Part shown: piece by piece, positions 45,259 through 57,281 of the stretch
How the letters are laid out: each line of letters opens with the position of its first letter
Position numbering within the stretch: position 1 is the stretch's first letter
IMG/VR virus record: IMGVR_UViG_3300030524_000001
DNA from: a virus
Length of the DNA: 64,000 nucleotides
Reading direction: 5' to 3' (one strand)
Program-made: the position numbers and the translations under genes
Notes under the pieces: model-generated
The model's database searches: none
What the model was told of the DNA's origin: nothing
The model's input: the letters and a program-made list of their open reading frames with translations, nothing else

Positions 45259-45531
45259 CTACTCTGCGACGGGCGTCTTGCGCGGACGTCCGACGCGCCT
45301 GGCCGGCGCCGGAGTGTCGGACTGCTCGCCGTTGTCGCTGTTGTCGTCATCGGCCGGGTCTGGCTCGGGCTCCGGAGCGACCTCGGGCGGTGCGATCTCG
45401 GAGAAGCCCGCGTCGCGGATACCGAGGAGCTGCAGACCGAGATCGTAGGGGACCTCGACCGCATCCTCGGCGGTCGTCCAGCTATAGCCGCCCGGCGCCG
45501 ACCCGGGCGCACGGCTCTTGCGCAGCCACAT
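45259..45531 (-). CDS. small head-region protein
   Basis: AAGGAGG RBS; acidic linker and RRVGRPRK tail. Confidence 0.6.
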   Translation of the reverse strand: MWLRKSRAPGSAPGGYSWTTAEDAVEVPYDLGLQLLGIRDAGFSEIAPPEVAPEPEPDPADDDNSDNGEQSDTPAPARRVGRPRKTPVAE

Positions 45532-45611
45532 GGACTGTCGCCTCCTTCAAGGAGTTGCAGGGGATGAGCTGGCCCCGGCCGAGGACTGGTCGGCCGGGGC
45601 CTGGCGCGGGA

Positions 45612-46970
45612 TCAGACAGCACTGACCAGGCGCGAGTACCGCCCGGCATATTTCGGCGCGCGCAACGCAGCCACGGTGTCGGTGACCACGGCGAACGGGA
45701 GGACGTCCGGGCTGGTCGTGGTCGGTGCCAGCGGGATGACCTGCATGTCGCGGGTGTACGGGCGCAGGAAGAAGTTGGGGTCCTTCGGCACGAGGTAGAT
45801 GTCCTCGTGGCCCGCGCCGCGCGCCTTCGCCCCACTGTTGCCGCCCTGGTACAGGGTCGGGCCGGTGTTGCCGGAGCTGTTGGTCTGCAGGTTGGTGCCG
45901 GTGTCGATGATGCTGGTCACGGCAGTGCCGGTGGTGTCGAACGCGTCGACGACGCCGACGAGGGACTCGGTGCCGGTGGTGGTGGACCGGTAGACCTTGT
46001 ACAGGATCGGGGAGGCGCCGTCCGGCATGTTGGTCGGGGTGGAGAAGCTCAACGTCACCGTGGACGTGGAGCCAGTGGTGGTCTGGGAGACCTCGGTGGA
46101 GCACTGGATCTCGCCGAAGCGGGCGATCACCGCACTGACCTGGTAGTAGTACGTGGTCGCCGCGAGGGTGCCGCCGGTGGTGGCGGTCGCGGTGGAGACC
46201 GCGCCCATCTGGTTGGAGCGGGGCGCGAGGAACGAGGACTCGACCAGCGGGACGCCGCGGTAGGTCGGGACGATCAGACCGGCGGCGACCTCGATCTCGC
46301 CCATGAACCGCTGCTGCGTGCTGAGCAGCTGCGAGATGGATCCGAGGATCGCGGGCGACATGATGAACATGTAGCTGCCGCCGTTGACGGGCAGACCCGC
46401 GTTGCTGGAGACCTGTGCCATCAGCGAGTCGAGGATCTTGGTGCTGAAGGTCGCGCCCGCGCCGTCGGTCGCGTTGGTGTAGGCGTTGGAGCCGGTCCCG
46501 TTGGTGAAGTTCGAGACCAGGTAGTCCAGGCCGGAGCAGATCGGGTACAGGCCGTTGGCGGTCGCCGGGTCGTTGCCCCAGATGAAGGAGTTCTCGACGG
46601 ACCACAGCATCGACTGGACGGTGCCGTCGATTTCCAGCTGCCGCAGGTCACCAACGAGGTCGCGGGTGACGGTCTGCGCGAAGCCCGTCACAGCGCCGAC
46701 GGCCTGGAACAGCTTGATGTTGAAGACGGCCTGCTCGTAGGTCGAGTTGCCGAGCGGGCGGGCGCCGCCGTCGACGACGCCACCGGCGTCCGGGCGCTGG
46801 GTGCGCCGGTTGAAGAAGTACTGCGTGGAGCCCCACTGGCGGGCCGGGATCGCCGCGAGGAGCGGCGCGAACCGGCGCTGGTACTCAAGGAGCAGCGGGT
46901 CGATCTGCTTTTGCACGAGGCCCGGGACGGAAGTTGCAGCCGTCAGGGCTTCCTCAAGTTCGGTCGGCAT
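45612..46970 (-). CDS. major capsid protein (HK97 fold) with Ig/FN3-like insertion
   Basis: Start MPTELEEAL; LVQKQIDPLLLEY...YRGVPLVES; Thr-rich insertion with YYYQVSAV...YKVYRS...IIDTG. Confidence 0.88.
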   Translation of the reverse strand: MPTELEEALTAATSVPGLVQKQIDPLLLEYQRRFAPLLAAIPARQWGSTQYFFNRRTQRPDAGGVVDGGARPLGNSTYEQAVFNIKLFQAVGAVTGFAQTVTRDLVGDLRQLEIDGTVQSMLWSVENSFIWGNDPATANGLYPICSGLDYLVSNFTNGTGSNAYTNATDGAGATFSTKILDSLMAQVSSNAGLPVNGGSYMFIMSPAILGSISQLLSTQQRFMGEIEVAAGLIVPTYRGVPLVESSFLAPRSNQMGAVSTATATTGGTLAATTYYYQVSAVIARFGEIQCSTEVSQTTTGSTSTVTLSFSTPTNMPDGASPILYKVYRSTTTGTESLVGVVDAFDTTGTAVTSIIDTGTNLQTNSSGNTGPTLYQGGNSGAKARGAGHEDIYLVPKDPNFFLRPYTRDMQVIPLAPTTTSPDVLPFAVVTDTVAALRAPKYAGRYSRLVSAV

Positions 46971-46998
46971 GAGTGCCTCGTCTTTCGTGGGCATGCGA

Positions 46999-47028
46999 AA
47001 GCCCCGCCGGGGTGTCCGGGCGGGGCTT
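46999..47028. terminator. hairpin between capsid start and HNH promoter
   Basis: AAGCCCCGCC / GGCGGGGCTT. Confidence 0.5.
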
Positions 47029-47066
47029 CGGAAGTGATGGAGAGCCGGAAGCGATATGCTTCTGAC

Positions 47067-47633
47067 ATGAGTTCTGATGCGTGCCTGAACGGCTGCTACC
47101 GCGCCTTATACGCCCGAGGTCTCTGCAATCCCTGTTATCAGCGCTGGCGTCGCAGGTATGCGGGTGAGGCCCTCAGTGGGCTGCCCGAAGAGCAGCGGTT
47201 CTGGGCGAAGGTAGAGAAGACGGACGACTGCTGGATCTGGGGCGGGGGCGTCAACGCGCACGGCTATGGCGGATTCGGAAGACCATCGAAGGTCGCGCAC
47301 CGTGTTGCCTACGAGTTGGCCGTCGGGCTGATTCCTGAAGGTCTCGAACTCGACCACCTGTGCCACGGCAGAGACCGGTCGTGCCCTGGCGGCGACTTGT
47401 GCCCACATCGCAGATGTGTCCGACCAGACCACCTGGAGCCGGTGACCACGAAGATCAATGCTCACCGGTCTGGCAGTGTGTCTGGGCTGAACGCCGCCAA
47501 GGACGTCTGCATCCGCGACCACGAATTCGACGAGGTCAACACCTACGTCAACAAGGCAGGGCATCGTGTTTGTCGCGCATGCGCACGCGAGAAGACCCGC
47601 AAGCGCCGGGCTGCACGAGCTGCGGCGGACTGA
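47067..47633 (+). CDS. free-standing HNH endonuclease, antisense to head operon
   Basis: RFWAKVEKTDDCWIW...AHRVAYE...IPEGLELDHLC...CVRPDHLEPVT...N; TATGCT 6 nt before ATG 47067. Confidence 0.92.
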   Translation: MSSDACLNGCYRALYARGLCNPCYQRWRRRYAGEALSGLPEEQRFWAKVEKTDDCWIWGGGVNAHGYGGFGRPSKVAHRVAYELAVGLIPEGLELDHLCHGRDRSCPGGDLCPHRRCVRPDHLEPVTTKINAHRSGSVSGLNAAKDVCIRDHEFDEVNTYVNKAGHRVCRACAREKTRKRRAARAAAD

Positions 47634-47636
47634 CTG

Positions 47637-49448
47637 TCAGACGCCGATCTTCCCGAAGTCGCCGAGAAGGTGGTCGGCGCGGTCGTCCCACATCTCGGCG
47701 CCGGTCTTGGGCTTGGCGTCGGGGCTGTCGGTCTCGGTGGTGCGGTGCCCGGCGCGCGGCGGCAGACCGTAGGCCTTGAGGAGCTGCGGAATGGCGTCCT
47801 TCATCGCCGCATTGATGGCCTCGTCGACCTGCGCCTTGGTGTAGGTCTCCTCGGTCGGGGCCGGTGCGGTGACCGGAGCCGCGGCCTCCTGCGCCACGAC
47901 AGCGGGGGCGACCGGCGCGACAGGGGTGGCCGGCGCTGCGACCGGTGCAGCCTCGGCGACCGGTGCGGCCGGTGCGACGTGCTGCAGGAGCTGCGCGAAC
48001 TGCTCCTGAGTGAGGCCGACCATCAGCGGCGCGACGGACTGGGCGGTGGTGGGTGCCGGGGTGGCGGGAGCCGCCGTCTCGGCGGCCGGGGTGACGACGT
48101 CGGTCACGGCGGACTCCTTCACTGTGGGGACGGGTTCGACAACCGGGTCCGGCGTCGAAAGCTGGGGGGCGACTGCGGGTGCGGTCTCGTCCGCGGACGC
48201 CTGCGTCGAGTTGCAGGTGCCGCAGTCGTTGCACGGGCACGGGCAGCCGGGGCCGCCTGCCATCTGGTGCGGGACGGAGCAGCCGCAGCCGCACGGGCAG
48301 CCGGAGCCGGGCTGGGGTTCGTCAGCCATGTCGGGGTCCTCCTCGTCTTCGGGTTCGTCGGCGTCGCCGAGGCCCCGGTCGATGTCTTCGGCCGGTGCGC
48401 CTTCGACGTCGATGTCGTCGTCGAGGTCCGGGTCCAGGGCGGTTAGTGCGTCGCAGGCGCCGGCCATGGCGGCGGCGCCGACCGCCTGGAGGTCGTGGGC
48501 GTCGATGAGGCGCGAGGTGACGCTGACGGTCGTCGGCCCGTTCGTCAGCGAGATGTAGATGTCGCCGCCGGACTGGTCCATGGCCCAGCATTCGGCGAGG
48601 GATTCGGAGACTGGAGCGACGGTTTCGATGAGCCAGTTCTCGGCAGACACCATCACGCCGAAGCCCTGGAGGGCCTTTCGAATCTTGGCCTTGATGTTCT
48701 TGAGCTGCTTCGACGTGTACAGGCGCGCATTGTCGGCCTGGTGGATGTAGCTCCACGCCGCCTTGGCCTTGATCTTCGTCGAGAGGTCGTACCGCTTCTG
48801 CTTGTCCTTCTGGTAGCCCGGGTCGGCGAACGGCCCGCTGGACTGCGGTGCGGCCTCGGGGACCGGCGTGGCCGCCTCTTCGGTGATGACGGTGGCCACG
48901 GGGACCTCCCAGGTTTCGGCGATAGGGGTACGCCCGGCGGTGGCCGGCGCGGATTCGGTCGGCGGCGATCCGCCGGGGGAGTCGATGAGCGCCTGGACGA
49001 CTCCGGGCGTTGCCGTCATGTCGACGGCGTCGACTTCCAAGTCGTCGGCGGTGGTGGCCATCTGGCCGTTGACTTCGACGCTCTTGGTCTCGCCGAGGAA
49101 GTAGCCGTGGATGCTGACGCTCTTGAGGCCGGGCGGCCCGCCGTCGGCTGGCTGCACGAGCGCCGCGATGTCCCGGGCTGGCGCGGTGTCGTACCAGCGG
49201 GCTTCGAAGCGGGCGGAGCCATCGGGTGCTTGCTGGACTCTGACGACCCGACCCACGATGAGCTGGGAATTATCACCGGCGCTGTGATGTGTACGCATCA
49301 CAATCGGTAGGGCGTCGGGATCTGCGATGCGCTCCTGCATCCGAGCGACGGCCTTACCGATCAGCTCCTTGGTGTACAGACACCGGTTGAGGCTGACGCC
49401 TGGGTACAGGAATGTGCCGGTGAATGGCTTGAGCGCAGCGGCGGCCAT
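47637..49448 (-). CDS. prohead protease-scaffold fusion
   Basis: N-terminal protease-like region (PGVSLN..LY, MRTHH, SVSIHG, VDMTATPGV), GPFADPGY...KRY...AAWSYI domain, long acidic Ala/Pro-rich scaffold tail; precedes capsid. Confidence 0.75.
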   Translation of the reverse strand: MAAAALKPFTGTFLYPGVSLNRCLYTKELIGKAVARMQERIADPDALPIVMRTHHSAGDNSQLIVGRVVRVQQAPDGSARFEARWYDTAPARDIAALVQPADGGPPGLKSVSIHGYFLGETKSVEVNGQMATTADDLEVDAVDMTATPGVVQALIDSPGGSPPTESAPATAGRTPIAETWEVPVATVITEEAATPVPEAAPQSSGPFADPGYQKDKQKRYDLSTKIKAKAAWSYIHQADNARLYTSKQLKNIKAKIRKALQGFGVMVSAENWLIETVAPVSESLAECWAMDQSGGDIYISLTNGPTTVSVTSRLIDAHDLQAVGAAAMAGACDALTALDPDLDDDIDVEGAPAEDIDRGLGDADEPEDEEDPDMADEPQPGSGCPCGCGCSVPHQMAGGPGCPCPCNDCGTCNSTQASADETAPAVAPQLSTPDPVVEPVPTVKESAVTDVVTPAAETAAPATPAPTTAQSVAPLMVGLTQEQFAQLLQHVAPAAPVAEAAPVAAPATPVAPVAPAVVAQEAAAPVTAPAPTEETYTKAQVDEAINAAMKDAIPQLLKAYGLPPRAGHRTTETDSPDAKPKTGAEMWDDRADHLLGDFGKIGV

Positions 49449-49669
49449 CAGCTACCTCCTCGGCGGGTCCGGGCGGCGCGCGCCGTGGCTGCAGGGGGAG
49501 GTGCGGGCTTCTTGCGGGCCCGGTCGGCGGCGAACAGCCGCAGGATCGCCTCGCGGACACGCGAATCCTCGTCGATGGCGGTGATCAGCCAGTCGCGGAA
49601 CTCGACCTCAGCGGTGGCTTCGTCGTGGTGCCGTCCCGGCGCCCTGGCCGGTCGCATGTACACGGTCAC
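49448..49669 (-). CDS. small hypothetical protein
   Basis: GTGA overlap upstream and TGATG overlap downstream. Confidence 0.5.
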   Translation of the reverse strand: MTVYMRPARAPGRHHDEATAEVEFRDWLITAIDEDSRVREAILRLFAADRARKKPAPPPAATARAARTRRGGS

Positions 49670-50037
49670 CTGCCGTACAGGCTGAGCGTCACACCAGTGA
49701 ACGCGGGGGTGGTGCCGCCGAGCGTCCACGTGACCTGGCACAGCATCGGCAGGACCAGGTTCGAGGTGTGCAGGCCGCAGGACCCGGACTGATGGCCAGC
49801 TGCCGTGAGCGCGGTCAGTGCCAGGGCGGCAGGGTAGACGTTGGCGTCCTGGTCGAGGAGGTCGACCTGGACGGTGAGTGTCGGGGTCGTGCCGCTGGGG
49901 GCGTTCGCGACGAAGGCGGCGAGCCACAGGTCGGTGACGTCGTGGATGTCCAGAACCACGGAGGAGGTGCTGGACGCCCCAATGAGGGAGGCGCCGTCCA
50001 GGGACCAGACCTTGCGGCCGTACGGATAGATCGCCAC
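49666..50037 (-). CDS. small beta-rich virion-region protein
   Basis: AGGAG RBS; SGTTPTLTVQV...VTWTLGGTTPAFT. Confidence 0.6.
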   Translation of the reverse strand: MAIYPYGRKVWSLDGASLIGASSTSSVVLDIHDVTDLWLAAFVANAPSGTTPTLTVQVDLLDQDANVYPAALALTALTAAGHQSGSCGLHTSNLVLPMLCQVTWTLGGTTPAFTGVTLSLYGR

Positions 50038-50039
50038 AG

Positions 50040-51503
50040 CTACTCCTCGCCTTCGTCGGGGATCGCGGTTGACGGCGGGGGAGCGCCGGGGACATCGGCA
50101 TCCGCCGGCGAAAGCACACAGCGACAGTTCGGGTGAAGCGGCGGCACGGGCGCGTCGGCGATGGCGTACGGGCTGCCGCTCTCGGCGTCCTGGCAGGCCG
50201 CGCAGACGTTGTTGCCGCCGGCGGTCCAGTAGTTGAGCATGGTGACGCCGCCGTCAGTGAATGTGCCGACCGCGCCGCTGCTCCATGCCTGGCCCATGGC
50301 CATGTCGAGGGGGGCGGTGACCGGGGTGGCGCCGTCGCCGGTGAGTGCGGCGCGGACGGCGGCGAGGAGCGCTGCGAGGGTCAGCTTCGCGGCGAAGCCC
50401 TTGGCGAGGAGTCGCGCGAGTGTCGAAGCCGCGCCGGACATGATTTTCGCTGCGACGGGTGGTGCCTGCCCCCAGGTCGTGAGGTCGCTGATGTCGTCGC
50501 GGGCTGAGTCGTAGGCGGCGGCCATGTCGTGCTTGCTGCCGCTGATGGCACGCCCTGCCGCTGCACCTTCAGCCTGGGCATCACCCAGCGCAGTGGTGAT
50601 GCTGTCGAGGAACTTCTGGTAGGCGGGGTCGGCCATGTTGGCGCCAATGAATGCTTGGCGTGCGATGGCGAGGGCCTGCATCCTGATGGCCTGCGGCGAC
50701 TGGTCGGGCAGATTGGGTGCTTGGGCGTGGAAGCTTCCGACGAGTTCGTCGAGGGAGATGAGTTGCAGGCACTTGGCCCAGGCGGCGAGGACTGCGGCCT
50801 GGTGCTGCTTCTCGCGCTTCTCGCGGCGCTGGTAGATCAGCGCCCAGGTCCCTTCAAGCTGCCCGATCTTGATGGTGGCTTCGAGGACGGCCGGGGCATC
50901 GGGATGCCCGCACGCCCATTCGACTGCGGCGATCGAGGCTGCGCGGACCTCGTCGGTCATCGGGGCGTCGCGGACGCTGGCCCAGCCCGTGGCGAATGCG
51001 GTCCGGGCGTCCTCGCGCAGACTGCTGGCGGTCTCACTGGCGAGGGTGTAGCCGGTGCGGTCGCCTGCGTGGACGGCGTTGACCGTGGTGAACAGGACGG
51101 GCGTGCACGGGATGCGGTCGATGGGCGACTCGGCGTCCGGGTCGATGAATGCGATCGAGATGTGCGCGGTGTGGCCGTGCTCGCGCGGGACGTCTATGCC
51201 GTGCGCGGCGAGTACATCAAGGGTGTCGCGGCGCAGGTCCTCGATTCCGGGCCCGTCGACGAGGGCAACGATGACATCCAGTTCGCCGCCGGTGAACCGG
51301 GCATGGCCGGAGATGCTTGCCTGGATCGGTGGCCGGTCGGCGAGGCTCGCCGCGACCTTGCGCAGCGTGTCCCGGTCGACGCCGACCGCCGGGCCCGTGT
51401 AGGCAATCGTGCAATGCATGGACTCGGGCAAGATGCCGCCAGGGACGGCAAGCTGCTCGGCGAGGTCAAGCGGCGGATACAGGGCGATCATGCTGCCGTT
51501 CAC
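50040..51503 (-). CDS. 2H-phosphoesterase (Acb1/LigT-like) domain fused to MuF minor head protein
   Basis: N-terminal MHCTIAY and HTAHISIAF (HxT/HxS pair); C-terminal W...VCAAC...PPLHPNCRCVL MuF signature. Confidence 0.8.
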   Translation of the reverse strand: MNGSMIALYPPLDLAEQLAVPGGILPESMHCTIAYTGPAVGVDRDTLRKVAASLADRPPIQASISGHARFTGGELDVIVALVDGPGIEDLRRDTLDVLAAHGIDVPREHGHTAHISIAFIDPDAESPIDRIPCTPVLFTTVNAVHAGDRTGYTLASETASSLREDARTAFATGWASVRDAPMTDEVRAASIAAVEWACGHPDAPAVLEATIKIGQLEGTWALIYQRREKREKQHQAAVLAAWAKCLQLISLDELVGSFHAQAPNLPDQSPQAIRMQALAIARQAFIGANMADPAYQKFLDSITTALGDAQAEGAAAGRAISGSKHDMAAAYDSARDDISDLTTWGQAPPVAAKIMSGAASTLARLLAKGFAAKLTLAALLAAVRAALTGDGATPVTAPLDMAMGQAWSSGAVGTFTDGGVTMLNYWTAGGNNVCAACQDAESGSPYAIADAPVPPLHPNCRCVLSPADADVPGAPPPSTAIPDEGEE

Positions 51504-51572: not shown

Positions 51573-52316
51573 CTAGCTGATCGCTGCCCAGATCGTCGCG
51601 GCGAGGTTGCCCGACGCCGAGCCCAGCGTCACCGACTGCGGCATCGCCGTCTGCGACGTACCCGAGGACAGGAACCGGCCCGTCGCCGTGGCCAGGCCGG
51701 CGTTGCCGATCGAGACGCCGCCGGGCTTGAGCGCCGACCCTGAGGCCAGGGTGATCGCGGTGCCGCCGTTGCACAGCACCCCAACGTAGTAGGCACCCGG
51801 GGCGGCGCTCACTACGGGGCTCGCCCAGGCAGCGGTGATCAGGCCAGCGCTGGCGAAGGCCGTGCTCTGGTCAGCCGAGATCGCGATCTGCGTGCCGGTC
51901 GAGTTGAACAGCGCCAGGTAGTTCTCGGACGCGGTCAGTGTGCCACCTGCCGTAGATACCTCGACGAGTCCGTTGGTGAGGGTCTGCTGCTGCGTCACGA
52001 TGACCTTCGAGAGGTACACGACCCCCGCGGTGGTCAGGAACGTCGATGCCGCTGCGGCCGGGTCGAAGGACCAGGCGATCAGACCGGAGTCCGCGGCCGT
52101 CGGGTCCGGGTTCTTCAGCGAGGTGACATTGCCGGAGGTGTCCATGAACACGGCGACGCCGTACTGGGAGTAGACGACAGCACCACCGGACGGGGTCGCG
52201 GGGGCAGTGGTCTGATTGGTCAGGTTCGCGCCCCGGTTGACGGTCAGGTGGTCAACGGTGATGTCGGTGTTGACGCGTCCGGTGACGACGGGTTCCTGCT
52301 CGCCTGCCTGGGCCAT
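51573..52316 (-). CDS. virion accessory (fibre/decoration-like) protein
   Basis: Ser/Thr/Ala/Gly-rich; C-terminal domain is paralogous to that of 58522-61014. Confidence 0.65.
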   Translation of the reverse strand: MAQAGEQEPVVTGRVNTDITVDHLTVNRGANLTNQTTAPATPSGGAVVYSQYGVAVFMDTSGNVTSLKNPDPTAADSGLIAWSFDPAAAASTFLTTAGVVYLSKVIVTQQQTLTNGLVEVSTAGGTLTASENYLALFNSTGTQIAISADQSTAFASAGLITAAWASPVVSAAPGAYYVGVLCNGGTAITLASGSALKPGGVSIGNAGLATATGRFLSSGTSQTAMPQSVTLGSASGNLAATIWAAIS

Positions 52317-52478
52317 GATGCTCCGCTCGTGGGATTTGCCGGGTGGCCGGTCGTGAAGGGCGCCGCCGTCCATCGGCGCGCGCGGATATCGAACCGTGCG
52401 TCACCGTTGCGTAACGTGCTGACGGTGGATCATGTGGCGCTGCGAAGCTGGCCGCCCACCGAACCCCAGGGGGACACC

Positions 52479-53069
52479 ATGGGACTGTTCAAGAGCAGCA
52501 AGCCGACGCCGGTCGACGGGGCGCCGGTGCCGATCGCCGAGTACAAGGTCAGCTACCGGGGCGGCCTCGCCGCGCTACCGAAGGCGAAGGTCGGCGAGAT
52601 TATCCTGCGGACCTGGGACGACCGCTTCGGCCTCAGCCCCACCATCGGCAGCAAGAAGTTCTGGCCGCCGCTCAGGATCCCCTACGCCGCGATCAGCGAC
52701 GTGCAGATCGTCCGCCGGCAGGTCACCGGCGCCGAGGCACTCCTGTCGGCGGGCTCCCGCAACGGGACACGCGGCCTGGAACAGAACAACAACATCCACA
52801 TCCACTACACCGACGACACCGGTGCCGCGATCGTGCTCCGCCTGGAGATGCTCACCGGCTTCAACATCACCACCCAGGCCAAGCGTGCCGCCGAGTTCAA
52901 CGACCTGCTACAAGCCCGCGGCATCCGGGCGCGGTTCCAGCAGCCAGTTGCTCAGCCTGGTGTCGGCTCTGTCGCGGATGAGCTCGGAAAGCTGCAGCAG
53001 CTGGCCGCGTCGGGCGTACTGTCGCCCGAGGAGTTCGCTGCGGCGAAGGCCCGGCTGCTCGGCCTGTAG
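52479..53069 (+). CDS. SHOCT-domain protein (PH-like N-terminus), antisense moron
   Basis: C-terminal VADELGKLQQLAASGVLSPEEFAAAKARLL; AGGGGG RBS before ATG 52479. Confidence 0.85.
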   Translation: MGLFKSSKPTPVDGAPVPIAEYKVSYRGGLAALPKAKVGEIILRTWDDRFGLSPTIGSKKFWPPLRIPYAAISDVQIVRRQVTGAEALLSAGSRNGTRGLEQNNNIHIHYTDDTGAAIVLRLEMLTGFNITTQAKRAAEFNDLLQARGIRARFQQPVAQPGVGSVADELGKLQQLAASGVLSPEEFAAAKARLLGL

Positions 53070-53145: not shown

Positions 53146-54753
53146 TCACCTCCCTGCTCCTACGAGTTCGCGGGCAGGCGGGAGTTCGGCGAGGGCCTGG
53201 GTGCGGCGCGCCCGGTAGGTGCGCCGCCATTCCTCGTCGAGGCTCTCGCGGGGCCCCGTGCCTTGCGGCAGGTCGCCGGCCAGGCCGGGGCCGTCCTCGG
53301 GGCCGAGCGGCGACGCGTCGAACGGGACGGGCTGGACAACGGGCGGCTCAACGGGATCCGGCTTGCTGAGCGTCACCGGGGTGCCGGGTGTCGGGGCGTC
53401 GGGCTCCAGGGAGGTGCCCTTGAGCTTCATGGCAATGCCGGCCTTGGACATGGCGTCCATGTCGGACCACTTGACGAGGTTCTGGCGGTCGACCAGGACC
53501 GGGTCGTCGCCGCCGTCGACGGGGGGTTCGCCGATCTCGTCGCGGACGCGGTTCAGGGTGTAGGAGCCGTTGCGCAGGCGGGTGTCGCGGATGTTCTCAA
53601 CGGTCGTCGAGTCGCGGTAGTCGATCTCGGGGAATTCGAGGTGCCAGTCCTCGATGCCGAAGCCCTGCTGCAGCAGATGAAAGTTGATCTTCTCCAGGAC
53701 GAGGGACTGCACCGGGATGATGGTGTTGATTCGCAGCGTTTTGTCCTGAGACTCCCCAGTGCCGCCGCCCAGGTTGCCGGACTCGATGATCCCCAGCTTG
53801 CCCGGCGGGACACCAAACGTGGCGATGATCTCGTCGCGCAGTTGCTTGCTGGCGGCCAGGTAGTCGGTGACCTTGCGCGGGTCCAGGACCTCGACCTTGC
53901 CGTCGCCGGTCGTGATCGTGGGGTTGCCGACCGCCTTCGGCCCCAGATTGAAGACCATGTACTGCTCGCGCCACCGCTGCACCTCAGTGTCGGACAGGTG
54001 CCCGAGGTCGACGTGGATCCGCGGCGGGTCGCCCCGGCGGAAACACTCCTTGATCGTCGCTTCGGTGAACAGCCACGCCGTCACCGGCAGCAGTGCCTTC
54101 TGCGTCGGACCCACCCCGTAGGAGCCACCCCGCGGCGCGTCCAGCGAGATGTGGATGACCTGCTCCGGAGTGAACTCGGCCGTCCGCGTGCCGCCCAGGC
54201 CGTCCACAACCTGGATGTACCCGGTGACCTCGCCGTGCGCGTCCGCGACGACCGTCATCGTCGTCGAGTCCAGGGTGTACAGCGCGACCGGCTCGCCCAG
54301 CAGCGTCACGATCTCGATGTACGCGTCCCCGAACAAGTTCAGGTCGATCACAGCGGACCGCAGGAGCTGCACCATGTCCTGGCGCGGGTTCACATACCGC
54401 ATCAGGCGGCGCAGCCGTGTCACCTCGGGCGTGTCCGGCGGCACTGTCCCGTCGTCCGACAGCGCATCCGACACCACCTGCAGGCCGCCCGCAGTGACCG
54501 TGCGTGCGATCAGATCGATCGGCGCGGCCACCCACGGGCACGTCAGGTACGCCTGGTACAGCTGCGTCATGACCTGCTGGCGTTCCTGGCTGTACGCTGC
54601 CGCGGTGCGCGACGTCGTCGGCATGAGCGCCGTGCCGTACTCGTAGCCGATACGCTGCGCGCCCGCCGCAGCCGAAGCCGACGGACCGGCCGGGGCGGCC
54701 TCGGCTACCGGGGTCCGGCGGAAGGCATCGCGGATACGTGCTCCTAGCCCCAC
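53146..54753 (-). CDS. portal protein
   Basis: YLTCPWVAAPIDLIA...NLFGDAYIEI...IIATFGVPPGKLG...TLNRVRDEIGEPPVDGGD; follows terminase. Confidence 0.93.
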   Translation of the reverse strand: MGLGARIRDAFRRTPVAEAAPAGPSASAAAGAQRIGYEYGTALMPTTSRTAAAYSQERQQVMTQLYQAYLTCPWVAAPIDLIARTVTAGGLQVVSDALSDDGTVPPDTPEVTRLRRLMRYVNPRQDMVQLLRSAVIDLNLFGDAYIEIVTLLGEPVALYTLDSTTMTVVADAHGEVTGYIQVVDGLGGTRTAEFTPEQVIHISLDAPRGGSYGVGPTQKALLPVTAWLFTEATIKECFRRGDPPRIHVDLGHLSDTEVQRWREQYMVFNLGPKAVGNPTITTGDGKVEVLDPRKVTDYLAASKQLRDEIIATFGVPPGKLGIIESGNLGGGTGESQDKTLRINTIIPVQSLVLEKINFHLLQQGFGIEDWHLEFPEIDYRDSTTVENIRDTRLRNGSYTLNRVRDEIGEPPVDGGDDPVLVDRQNLVKWSDMDAMSKAGIAMKLKGTSLEPDAPTPGTPVTLSKPDPVEPPVVQPVPFDASPLGPEDGPGLAGDLPQGTGPRESLDEEWRRTYRARRTQALAELPPARELVGAGR

Positions 54754-57281
54754 GGTCCACCGCCCCCCGTCGCGACGGGGAAACCGCCGAAGCTCGTCGG
54801 CAGCTGCGCCGGAGGGAGAGGAACGGTGACCGCGGGTTGGGCCTGCGGGTCGACGTGGGTTGTCTCAGGCTCTTCGCCAGGGAAGTGCCAGCGGGACTCA
54901 CCACCGATCGACATGATCAGGTAGCGGCAGTTGTGCACCAGGACGCCGTTGGCGAAGTACTCCTCGACGTCTTCGACGGAAAGGTTGTATACGTCAGCCC
55001 GTCCGGCGTCGGACAGTCCAAGAACATGCGCGGGAGCAATTTCGGGTCGAGGCGTAGCGATTGATGCGGAACGTCTCGCCGCAGCCCTCGCACGTGCGGT
55101 CCACGTCGTCGATTCCGCTCGCCTTTCGGGCATAGGCGCGGCACTTCCCAGAACAAAACCGCGTCGATTCGTTGCGGTCGGTAGTTTCGAACACCTCGCC
55201 GCAATGCGCGCACGCCAGCGTGCGCGGCTCGCGCCCGATCCAAGCTCGCCTTCCGTTCTCGGAGTGCCAGGCACGCCCCTCGTCGCTGCGGTGCCATTCT
55301 GCGGCCAGCTGCTGGTTAGCCGCCCATGCCGTGCGCTGAGCATCGCTCCGCGGCTGATCCCCGTGATGAGAGCGGTGGACCTCGTTGGGCACACAGACGA
55401 GATTGTCGATCGAGTTGTTGTCTGGATCGTGGTCCCGATGATGGGTATCGAAGCCCTCGGGTATCGGGCCGTGTGCAGCCTTCCAGATTTCCTGATGGAG
55501 GCGGCCGACGCCGCGCGCGCGATGACTCCCGCCTGGCGTGAAGTAGACCTGTTCAGTTCTGCGCTTGGCGTCCGGATAGCGGCGGAAAGTGATGCCGTTG
55601 AAGACGACAGATTCAACCCTTGGGCGCTTGCGTGGCATGTCTGAATTCTATCAAGGTATCTCAGGGAATCGAGCCGAACGAAGCCTTCCCCCTGCACGAA
55701 GACGGGATGATTCCCGGTTCCAATCAGCTCGCGTCCGTTGCTCATTGAGACCTTGAGTACGGGCTGCGCAATGCCAGTGCGAGCTGAGTCGCGCACCCGT
55801 CGCCACCCCTGTCGGGTCATCACTTCGTCGCCGACGCGGACGTCCTCGATGGGGACGTCGCCGCGGCTCGTGGAGATCAGCGTCCCGGCAACGAAGCAGG
55901 CGTCGTACCAATGGTCTGGGCCATCGGTGTCGACGTCCTCCGGCCGGTGCGGATCGCGCGGCAGCTCGCCCATGGTCTTCGTGAACTGCGGGCAGGCGCC
56001 GTCGAGGATATGCAGCAGCGGGCAGGTCGCCCAACCGAGTTCGCGGTGGTAGGCGCACGCTGGCGCTTCGGCGAGGTAGGTGTGCATGCGGGCCTTGCCG
56101 CCGAGCCGGTCGGTGTCGGCCTTCGTCAGGTGCAGGCCCTCGGTCGCCATCTGATCGGCCGGCGGGAGCGAGGACCCCGTCTTGCCCCACATGGCGGGGT
56201 CGGCCGCGATCGCCAGCACATGATGGCCGGCGTTGGCGTCGAGGATCTGCCGGGCCTGCTCGCGCTCCGGTGTCTGGACCATCGTCAGCTCGCGGTAGAA
56301 CCACAGCCGCCCGTCGCCGTCCTTCGCCGCGGCCAGGTACACCGACGGCGCTGCCCAGCCGTAGTCCATGCCGCCGCGCCGCTGCCACGATGCGGGCAGC
56401 TCGCACGGCGGGACGACGATCCGGTCGCGCTTCCAGTCCGGGAACGCGGCGTCAGGCATCGCGGACCAGTCCCCGTCCTTGATGCGTGCACGCAGGTCCG
56501 GGTCAGCGATGCCTTCGAGGCTCTTCTCGTAGTCGCCGACGTACGGATTGTCGGACGCCTTCGCGGGGATGAAGATCCGGCGCCGCCCGGCCCTGTCGAC
56601 GATCTCCTTGGTGCCGTAGTCGGTGGCGTCGACGTAGTCGTCCTTGACGACGCCGTGCCCGATGTGGCCGGGGTTGCTGGCGGAGCGTGCGCCGAGGCAG
56701 GGCACGCCTTCGACGCCGGAGCGGATGCGCGTGTAGAGGAAGTCCACGACTTCAGGCGGCATCGTGGTGCGCTCATCGATGACGAGCATGTTGATCTCCG
56801 CGCTACTGAGCGCGGCGGCCTCTTCCATGTTCTTCGCGTGCGCGAACGTCAGGATCGAGTTGCCGGGGAACCGCAGCTCGTACTTCGAGCCGTTCCAGAT
56901 TCCGCCGACCGCCTTGGCGTAGTTGTATCGCGCCAGGTTCCGCAGCACCGACTGGTTCAGCTGCGGGAACGTCTTGCGGAACCAGAAGATCTGGATGCCG
57001 GGGAAGCGGACGCAGGTGCGGATGACCAGGGCCAGCAAGCTCTGGGACTTGCCGCCGCCGCCAGCCCCGCCGTAGAGCACGTCGAGGTCTTCGTCGGGCA
57101 GGGCAAGGAACCGCTCCTGCGGGCAAGTCCCGCACATCGGCGGCAAGTCGGCCTCGGGGGTCCCGGCCAGTCGGGCGAGGACCCGCGGCTTGCAGACCGG
57201 TTCGAAGCCCAGCACCGTCAGCGTGTCGGGCTTCTCGAACTCCCGGGCCGCGTACTCGGCCCAGTCCATGGTGGCGGTCAT
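54744..57281 (-). CDS. terminase large subunit containing an intein
   Basis: YGGAGGGGKS Walker A, LVIDE Walker B, ASNPG, GMDYG nuclease, DHWYDA|CRY split by intein; spliced length 522 aa. Confidence 0.95.
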   Translation of the reverse strand: MTATMDWAEYAAREFEKPDTLTVLGFEPVCKPRVLARLAGTPEADLPPMCGTCPQERFLALPDEDLDVLYGGAGGGGKSQSLLALVIRTCVRFPGIQIFWFRKTFPQLNQSVLRNLARYNYAKAVGGIWNGSKYELRFPGNSILTFAHAKNMEEAAALSSAEINMLVIDERTTMPPEVVDFLYTRIRSGVEGVPCLGARSASNPGHIGHGVVKDDYVDATDYGTKEIVDRAGRRRIFIPAKASDNPYVGDYEKSLEGIADPDLRARIKDGDWSAMPDAAFPDWKRDRIVVPPCELPASWQRRGGMDYGWAAPSVYLAAAKDGDGRLWFYRELTMVQTPEREQARQILDANAGHHVLAIAADPAMWGKTGSSLPPADQMATEGLHLTKADTDRLGGKARMHTYLAEAPACAYHRELGWATCPLLHILDGACPQFTKTMGELPRDPHRPEDVDTDGPDHWYDACFVAGTLISTSRGDVPIEDVRVGDEVMTRQGWRRVRDSARTGIAQPVLKVSMSNGRELIGTGNHPVFVQGEGFVRLDSLRYLDRIQTCHASAQGLNLSSSTASLSAAIRTPSAELNRSTSRQAGVIARAASAASIRKSGRLHTARYPRASIPIIGTTIQTTTRSTISSVCPTRSTALITGISRGAMLSARHGRLTSSWPQNGTAATRGVPGTPRTEGELGSGASRARWRARIAARCSKLPTATNRRGFVLGSAAPMPERRAESTTWTARARAAARRSASIATPRPEIAPAHVLGLSDAGRADVYNLSVEDVEEYFANGVLVHNCRYLIMSIGGESRWHFPGEEPETTHVDPQAQPAVTVPLPPAQLPTSFGGFPVATGGGGPWG
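54994..55638 (-). CDS. HNH endonuclease overprinted in an alternative frame inside the intein
   Basis: LHQEIWKAAHGPIPEGFDTHHRDHDPDNNSIDNL...H; two CxxC...FCSxxC zinc repeats; start offset 1643 nt from TerL start, so not in the TerL frame. Confidence 0.9.
   Translation of the reverse strand: MPRKRPRVESVVFNGITFRRYPDAKRRTEQVYFTPGGSHRARGVGRLHQEIWKAAHGPIPEGFDTHHRDHDPDNNSIDNLVCVPNEVHRSHHGDQPRSDAQRTAWAANQQLAAEWHRSDEGRAWHSENGRRAWIGREPRTLACAHCGEVFETTDRNESTRFCSGKCRAYARKASGIDDVDRTCEGCGETFRINRYASTRNCSRACSWTVRRRTG
55645..55653 (-). promoter_or_regulatory. extended -10 promoter inside the intein coding sequence
   Basis: TG-A-TAGAAT, then TCAGAC, then ATG 55638 (leaderless geometry). Confidence 0.65.

Follow-up and report, generated by a model that had tools for sequence, protein, structure and literature searches.

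Why would a phage attach a phosphoesterase to a protein of its own head? The question is raised by a gene of the IMG/VR virus record IMGVR_UViG_3300030524_000001, of which a stretch of 64,000 nt (the window) was analysed and which we read as an uncultivated temperate siphovirus of Streptomycetaceae type from soil. In this late head-module gene of what would be a temperate actinophage, an apparently active 2H phosphoesterase is joined to the N-terminus of a MuF/gp7-type protein. Our proposed answer is a capsid-loaded, injected enzyme that acts against defence signalling, and we estimate the probability of this whole chain at about 0.4.

The limits given to the gene in a preliminary description of the locus were right, with a single open reading frame (ORF) of 487 amino acids (aa) filling the interval, and its strand was corrected to minus; the plus-strand translation of the same interval is riddled with stops. 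A G-rich Shine-Dalgarno-like run lies 8-15 nt upstream of the GTG and supports it as the start codon, as do close homologues that open with MNGSMIALYPP. The next gene, encoding 123 aa, begins with a GTG 2 nt past the stop of the fusion gene and is preceded by its own GGCGAGGAG site, and the two genes are therefore translationally coupled. The full-length AlphaFold2 (AF2) model of the fusion protein has a predicted local distance difference test (pLDDT) score of 87. The coordinates of all features are collected in Table 1.

Residues 1-165 were modelled as a 2H fold with a mean pLDDT of 95.7, and the model matches the folds of LigT/ThpR, Usb1, the rotavirus VP3 phosphodiesterase and Acb1. The domain is matched by PF13563 (E = 3e-5) and phrog_2659 (E = 6e-13); a phmmer search of PDB sequences with the full protein gave a single weak, meaningless match only. 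With two HxT/S motifs on pseudo-symmetric lobes and the 2H fold, the domain belongs to the 2H superfamily. The motifs MHCTIAY and HTAHISIAF, which had been seen within residues 1-155, are both present and could be mapped, and the domain spans residues 1-156. Among 70 domain relatives of 29-76% identity, H30, T32 and H114 are invariant, position 116 (Ser in the window protein) is Thr in at least 90%, and H109, G110, F70 and R91 are near-invariant. Given that H30, T32 and H114 are unchanged over this range of identity, the alignment gives a clear indication of purifying selection on the catalytic residues. The fused enzyme appears to be catalytically competent and would be metal-independent. The invariant columns in these 70 relatives and in 30 full-length ones, together with the confidently modelled fold, argue that the motifs are not there by chance.

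The domain had been called Acb1-like by comparison with the phage T4 enzyme, which does prove to be a 2H enzyme that degrades the signals of CBASS, the antiphage defence that relies on cyclic-oligonucleotide signalling (PMC9117128). The likeness holds at the level of the motifs. T4 Acb1 (57B) and Erwinia phage FBB1 Acb1 (PDB 7T26, 7T27) share with the window domain a phage-encoded 2H fold, the HxT/HxT tetrad and the motif flavour HxTIxY and TPHITLxY; HCTIAY and (F)TPHxTLxY of the clade correspond to HSTICY and YTPHITLSY of T4 Acb1, and hhalign matched the family profile to T4 Acb1 with a probability of 92% (E = 6.6e-7). The window protein did not match the Pfam Acb1 family PF23474 at E<=0.1, although 18 of 30 family members matched it weakly (best 7e-6) and one portal-fused relative reached 31.1 bits against a cut-off of 27. 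Acb1 stacks nucleobases with Y12, W74, F107 and W147, contacts adenine through E141 and closes with a C-terminal lid (PMC9117128). At sequence level, only W74 among these residues has a counterpart, the near-invariant F70; F107 aligns with E108, and the lid, W147 and E141 find no counterpart because the alignment stops at the second motif. Two side observations concern T4 acb1 itself: the gene adjoins ipI, which encodes an internal virion protein (L011 1592-2411), and its RefSeq label is 'RNA ligase', the same misleading name that actinophage 2H genes carry in SEA-PHAGES annotations. For the Burkholderia phage BCSR5 enzyme of PDB 9Q2G/9Q2Y, our literature search found no paper.

Structure prediction and comparison, which the preliminary description had suggested, confirmed the 2H fold but gave neighbours of LigT/ThpR type rather than Acb1. 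A profile built from the 70 relatives matched archaeal LigT at 3e-11, the Deinococcus radiodurans cyclic phosphodiesterase (drCPDase) at 1e-8 and BCSR5 Acb1 at 6e-4, and FBB1 Acb1 only at 0.25; an hhalign-type profile-to-sequence comparison with Escherichia coli ThpR gave 87.8% (E = 3.3e-6), about equal to the result for T4 Acb1. Similarity of profile and structure would thus admit the domain to the LigT/ThpR group (PF02834, PF13563). However, the Arg of the HxTxxR motif of that group (HITLGR in PH0099, HITLLR in ThpR), at +5 of the second motif, is replaced by F119 in the window protein and by Tyr in at least 90% of the relatives, and T4 Acb1 is Tyr/Phe-like at this position, as is the clade. 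LigT/ThpR enzymes (E. coli ThpR, 5LDI; Thermus thermophilus TT0787, 1IUH; D. radiodurans CPDase, 5H7E; Pyrococcus horikoshii PH0099, 1VDX) are, moreover, cellular, stand-alone proteins of about 15% identity to the window enzyme, which is fused to a virion protein; separate 2H clades are only about 15% identical to one another. The C-terminal 2',5'-phosphodiesterase of rotavirus VP3 (PDB 5AF2, 4RPT), from a eukaryotic RNA virus, is 11-13% identical and has no evident direct relationship past superfamily level. Judged from these alignments, the window domain is a member of a distinct phage-associated clade that lies about as far from Acb1 as from cellular LigT/ThpR.

A divergent minor head protein of MuF/gp7 type makes up residues 157-470. 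The C-terminal signature C..C...PPLHPNCRC noted earlier is indeed there: CAAC...PPLHPNCRC (C434-C462) maps to nt 50118-50204, and C437, H457, C460, R461 and C462 are invariant in the 30 full-length relatives. In the AF2 model, residues 157-417 are helical and residues 422-466 form a small beta unit; the helical region carries a conserved segment, AFAxGWA..GPMT, right after the 2H domain, and the conserved GW segment of the fusion protein comprises residues 166-182. A C-x2-C ... H-P-x-C-R-C core on a largely helical body, encoded downstream of the portal in a head module, is what characterizes MuF proteins. The profile matches of the window protein are weak for PF04233 (E = 0.023; 15.9 bits, cut-off 29.6) and TIGR01641 (E = 2.8e-4; 21.2 bits, cut-off 39.65), six MuF-type PHROGs (head morphogenesis or minor head protein) match it at 2e-7 to 2e-4, and PF04233 is matched by 10 of the 30 relatives (best 8e-7). 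When the family profile was aligned by hhalign, a bona fide MuF protein, Laroye gp17, was matched at E = 1.7e-5, and with SPP1 gp7 the CRC tripeptide alone was aligned, without significance. SPP1 gp7 is too distant for this comparison, and the MuF assignment therefore rests on the weaker profile matches, the invariant core, the relatives and synteny. Four 2H-MuF relatives of about 820-885 aa (P0111, P0114, P0122 and P0133) are interrupted by a Hint/intein element in their C-terminal MuF part; inteins are thus found both in terminases and in this minor head protein.

The 2H-MuF fusion recurs in more than 100 sequence clusters, at identities as low as 34%, with relatives in prophages of Streptomyces, Kitasatospora and Streptacidiphilus and in soil metagenomes, while the 2H domain alone is found in 2,456 representative clusters at E<=1e-3. 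Among close relatives we observed the architectures portal-2H, portal-2H-MuF, portal-2H-GNAT, intein-interrupted 2H-MuF and 2H...zeta-toxin. In 76 more distant relatives, the partner domains were S78_2 (XkdF-type prohead protease) in 11, Portal_Mu in five, HK97-type Phage_portal in four, and S78 protease and MuF in three each. Among isolated actinophages, a stand-alone 2H gene annotated as 'RNA ligase' immediately follows a portal-MuF fusion gene in DalanDe and lies one small gene past it in Cantare; in Laroye, the gene next after MuF joins the 2H domain to an XkdF-type prohead protease. Independent fusions to portal, MuF and prohead protease argue for selection to place the enzyme inside the head. 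In Gordonia phage GMA2, a 2H domain of the same clade forms the C-terminal 150 aa of Orf10 (883 aa; L010 4529-7180; hhalign 98.7%, E = 4e-16), a protein identified by mass spectrometry of purified virions; the 18 published Orf10 peptides are spread over residues 142-846, and the second HxT motif falls within one of these peptides, SEVGDYDAYTPHITAVTGQQAR (PMC4524720 Table S5). Orf10 is a 'putative structural protein' in GenBank and a 'head maturation protease' in RefSeq; its 2H domain is absent from both annotations and went unremarked by the authors. Taken together, the recurrent fusions to head proteins and the detection in GMA2 virions support capsid loading well, and we consider it highly probable that the 2H enzyme is carried in the capsid.

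We propose that, as the procapsid is assembled, the MuF part attaches to the portal on its inner face, which would put a few enzyme copies in each virion. There is precedent for such a route, as the portal directs SPP1 gp7 into the interior of the procapsid, and a virion contains about three copies of it (PMC6316719, PMC4493119). In the MuF polymorphic toxins of the SPP1 gp7 family, MuF/gp7 likewise serves as a carrier into the capsid via the portal (PMC6316719); unlike those proteins, which have C-terminal toxins, the window protein carries its cargo N-terminal to MuF, the cargo is a phosphoesterase, and relatives place it between portal and MuF. At infection, the enzyme would most likely enter the cell with the DNA or just after it and would there hydrolyse 2'-OH-dependent phosphodiesters before phage genes are expressed. 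The most probable substrates would be defence second messengers, either the cyclic oligonucleotides of CBASS or type III CRISPR (short palindromic repeats that are clustered and regularly interspaced) or molecules with 2'-5' or 2',3'-cyclic linkages. That a phage 2H enzyme is able to destroy such signals is known from T4 Acb1, which cuts 3'-5' cyclic oligonucleotides through a 2',3'-cyclic intermediate (PMC9117128). An RNA-repair module was considered as the main interpretation and rejected, because no RNA ligase, RtcB, KptA/Tpt1 or polynucleotide kinase that could partner the enzyme turned up when the 56 other ORFs of the window were scanned. The T4 precedent together with the missing repair partners leads us to favour a counter-defence role on nucleotide signals, and Iyer et al. 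(2017) report that RNA ligases are never found in association with 2H domains of this kind (PMC5512222).

Several points weigh against this proposal. The nearest structural and profile neighbours of the domain are RNA 2',3'-cyclic phosphodiesterases (LigT/ThpR, drCPDase) and not Acb1, and, at sequence level, F107, the lid residue W147 and E141 of Acb1 are without counterpart. The small number of enzyme copies in a virion could prove insufficient to have an effect. Delivery into the cell is the weakest link. Vinga and colleagues (2006) reportedly did not detect co-ejection of SPP1 gp7 with DNA in vitro, which suggests that MuF-tethered cargo may stay in the capsid, or act only in the producer cell. 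The interpretation in the preliminary description, which had the virion deliver a cyclic-oligonucleotide-degrading or RNA-end-processing enzyme at infection, is partly supported.

The alternative that survives best, although we judge it rather unlikely, is that the enzyme is loaded and injected but acts on RNA and not on signalling nucleotides, opening the 2',3'-cyclic phosphate ends that metal-independent host RNases such as toxins or anticodon nucleases leave, or carrying out Usb1-like trimming or cleavage of host RNAs. The closer resemblance to RNA 2',3'-cyclic phosphodiesterases leaves room for such a role; the absence of the above repair partners among the other ORFs scanned in the window speaks against it, as does the Tyr/Phe which, as in T4 Acb1, stands in place of the Arg of the LigT/ThpR HxTxxR motif. 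A 2'-phosphate product, moreover, would block RtcB-type repair.

It is unlikely, in our estimate, that the enzyme is not delivered at all and either acts late in infection, inside the cell that makes the phage, or remains attached to the portal within the virion. Made in abundance at that late stage, it could degrade signals or RNA ends when abortive infection fires, with the fusion serving only co-expression or stoichiometry. The reported failure of SPP1 gp7 to leave with the DNA counts for this explanation too. Expression of the fusion gene goes with that of the late head genes, and its translation is coupled to that of the next gene downstream. SPP1 gp7 has also been proposed to hold the DNA and control its exit (PMC4493119). 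Three different fusion partners in the capsid interior, however, are hard to explain without selection for packaging, and the 2H domain is present in GMA2 virions.

That the domain is a true Acb1 orthologue, with the Acb1 substrate range of adenosine-containing cyclic di- and trinucleotides but not cyclic tetraadenylate (cA4), appears improbable. The hhalign match to T4 Acb1 with its matching motifs, the weak PF23474 matches in 18 of 30 family members and the alignment of W74 with F70 would fit an orthologue; the PF23474 search with the window protein itself and the positions of F107, W147 and E141 do not. Finally, the conservation of H30, T32, H114, position 116, H109, G110, F70 and R91 makes it extremely improbable that the domain is an inactive structural or nucleotide-binding module, a possibility for which we found no support.

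The design itself is not new. Fusions of 2H domains to MuF or portal were described by Iyer, Burroughs, Anand, de Souza and Aravind in 2017 (PMC5512222 section 20), who proposed a Usb1-like RNase or the degradation of defence nucleotides (PMC5512222), and Iyer et al. (2022) suggested that such fusions are probably packaged and injected against SMODS, cyclic mononucleotide and CRISPR signalling (PMC9503650 section 21). The window gene is a further case of this class, which was itself defined by sequence analysis alone: the domain pair, the late/virion gene context and the proposed roles are the same, and the architectures portal-2H-MuF and portal-2H recur among the relatives that we identified. 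It differs in that it represents a two-domain 2H-MuF family of Streptomycetaceae phages, apart from the portal gene. The present analysis contributes the virion peptide of GMA2, a count of fusions to proteases, and a side-by-side calibration in which T4 Acb1 and E. coli ThpR served as references. In the literature we found no experimental test of head-packaged 2H fusions, nothing relevant on MuF with Acb1 or MuF with CBASS, and, on virion-packaged phosphodiesterases against defence, a jumbo-phage review only.

Table 1. Features of the fusion gene and of the surrounding head module (window coordinates)
Feature	Position	Strand	Evidence or remark
Large terminase gene with intein	54744..57281	-	phrog_2 E 1e-29; Hint_2 and Intein_splicing on identical L004 gene
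Portal gene, expected MuF docking partner	53146..54753	-	PF04860 E 3e-27, phrog_12 E 1e-40
Antisense gene, C-terminal SHOCT domain (E 5.6e-7)	52248-53069	+	Between portal and 2H-MuF
266-aa gene, matches only C-terminus of phrog_4013	51573-52373	-	Between portal and 2H-MuF
Whole 2H-MuF fusion gene	50040..51503	-	487 aa; starts with GTG and stops with TAG at 50040-50042
2H phosphoesterase domain, residues 1-156	51036..51503	-	AF2, fold matches, PF13563, phrog_2659
First catalytic motif H30-C-T32 (MHCTIAY)	51408..51416	-	H30, T32 invariant in 70 relatives
Second catalytic motif H114-I-S116 (HTAHISIAF)	51156..51164	-	H114 invariant; near-invariant H109-G110 precede
All-helical middle, residues 157-417, divergent N-terminal MuF body	50253..51035	-	AF2 and family alignment
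MuF core, residues 418-470, C434-x2-C437 ... H457-P-N-C460-R-C462	50094..50252	-	Invariant columns, profiles
Disordered Pro/acidic C-terminal tail, residues 471-487	50043..50093	-	pLDDT <50 for 473-487
123-aa gene downstream of fusion gene	49666..50037	-	Conserved in relatives
DUF6582 protein, 603 aa, scaffold/protease position	47637..49448	-	PF20223 E 2e-8; synteny in relatives
Major capsid protein gene	45612..46994	-	phrog_752 E 6e-25; SU10_MCP on identical gene

The window has about 69% G+C and no tRNA genes, and it encodes a serine integrase (Resolvase and Recombinase) and a Gp3-like directionality factor. On the minus strand, an intein-bearing large terminase (TerL), the portal, the 266-aa gene, the 2H-MuF fusion, the 123-aa gene, the DUF6582 protein, the major capsid protein (MCP) and the tape measure follow one another, and the order TerL, portal, 2H/MuF, small gene, DUF6582 and MCP is conserved in relatives. 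In a Streptomyces goshikiensis prophage with a 45%-identical protein, 2H-MuF comes directly after the portal, and in a second relative contig one small gene separates them; given the contiguity in S. goshikiensis, the SHOCT-domain gene and the 266-aa gene look like inserted, lineage-specific morons. At protein level, the closest relatives of this metagenome contig come from Streptomyces, Kitasatospora and Streptacidiphilus genomes. The identical fusion protein is encoded on metagenome contigs of 10-100 kb (JGI, ENA, Logan), while a megablast search with the 12 kb around the fusion gene gave no match in the phage collection.

Some further observations were made on neighbouring genes. The terminase intein is bounded by CFVAGT and VLVHNC, its middle reads in frame as a Ser/Thr/Arg/Ala-rich low-complexity stretch, and a 214-aa ORF in another frame inside the intein (54994-55638, minus strand) contains the HNH motif HHRDHDPDNN...HRSHH. 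In one metagenome contig (L007 6740-8346), the portal is called as pieces of 441 and 104 aa instead of 535 aa, probably owing to a frameshift variant or to faulty assembly. A 152-aa gene between the DUF6582 and MCP genes (47106-47564, minus strand) is called in the L004 listing and is not among the listed calls of the matching contigs L005, L008 and L009, where the same interval has no called gene; this may be a gene-calling difference only. An HNH-like motif lies in the C-terminal part of a plus-strand ORF (45390-47633) that overlaps this gene; for the 152-aa ORF itself, neither an HNH motif nor a family match was established. Among the early and accessory genes at positions 1-22000 of the window, Pfam matches include a vWA-TerF-like protein (E = 1.5e-56), a HAD hydrolase, an RNase_T exonuclease and a single-stranded DNA-binding protein (SSB), besides the serine integrase and the directionality factor mentioned above.

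The signal-cleaving activity of T4 Acb1 was followed in lysates of infected cells (PMC9117128), whereas a virion-borne enzyme would act ahead of any phage transcription. If the enzyme is indeed delivered, our understanding of when CBASS, type III CRISPR and other abortive-infection systems of this sort act would change, and the attachment of small enzymes to portal, MuF and prohead-protease proteins in so many phages would be explained. A bench test is worthwhile because cultivable relatives exist, namely the Gordonia phages DalanDe and GMA2, Arthrobacter phage Laroye and Brevibacterium phage Cantare. It is a possible, though doubtful, further step that the clade defined by MIALYPP...HxTxAY...HGFTPHxTLxY is a phage lineage sister to Acb1, pre-made and co-injected with the DNA, that would erase alarm signals of cyclic-oligonucleotide or 2'-5'-linked type as early as the first seconds of infection. 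If this were true, evidence for packaging would already lie unrecognised in the virion proteomics of GMA2, and the clade would provide the first demonstrated virion-delivered enzyme against defence signalling, one that is widespread in actinophages.
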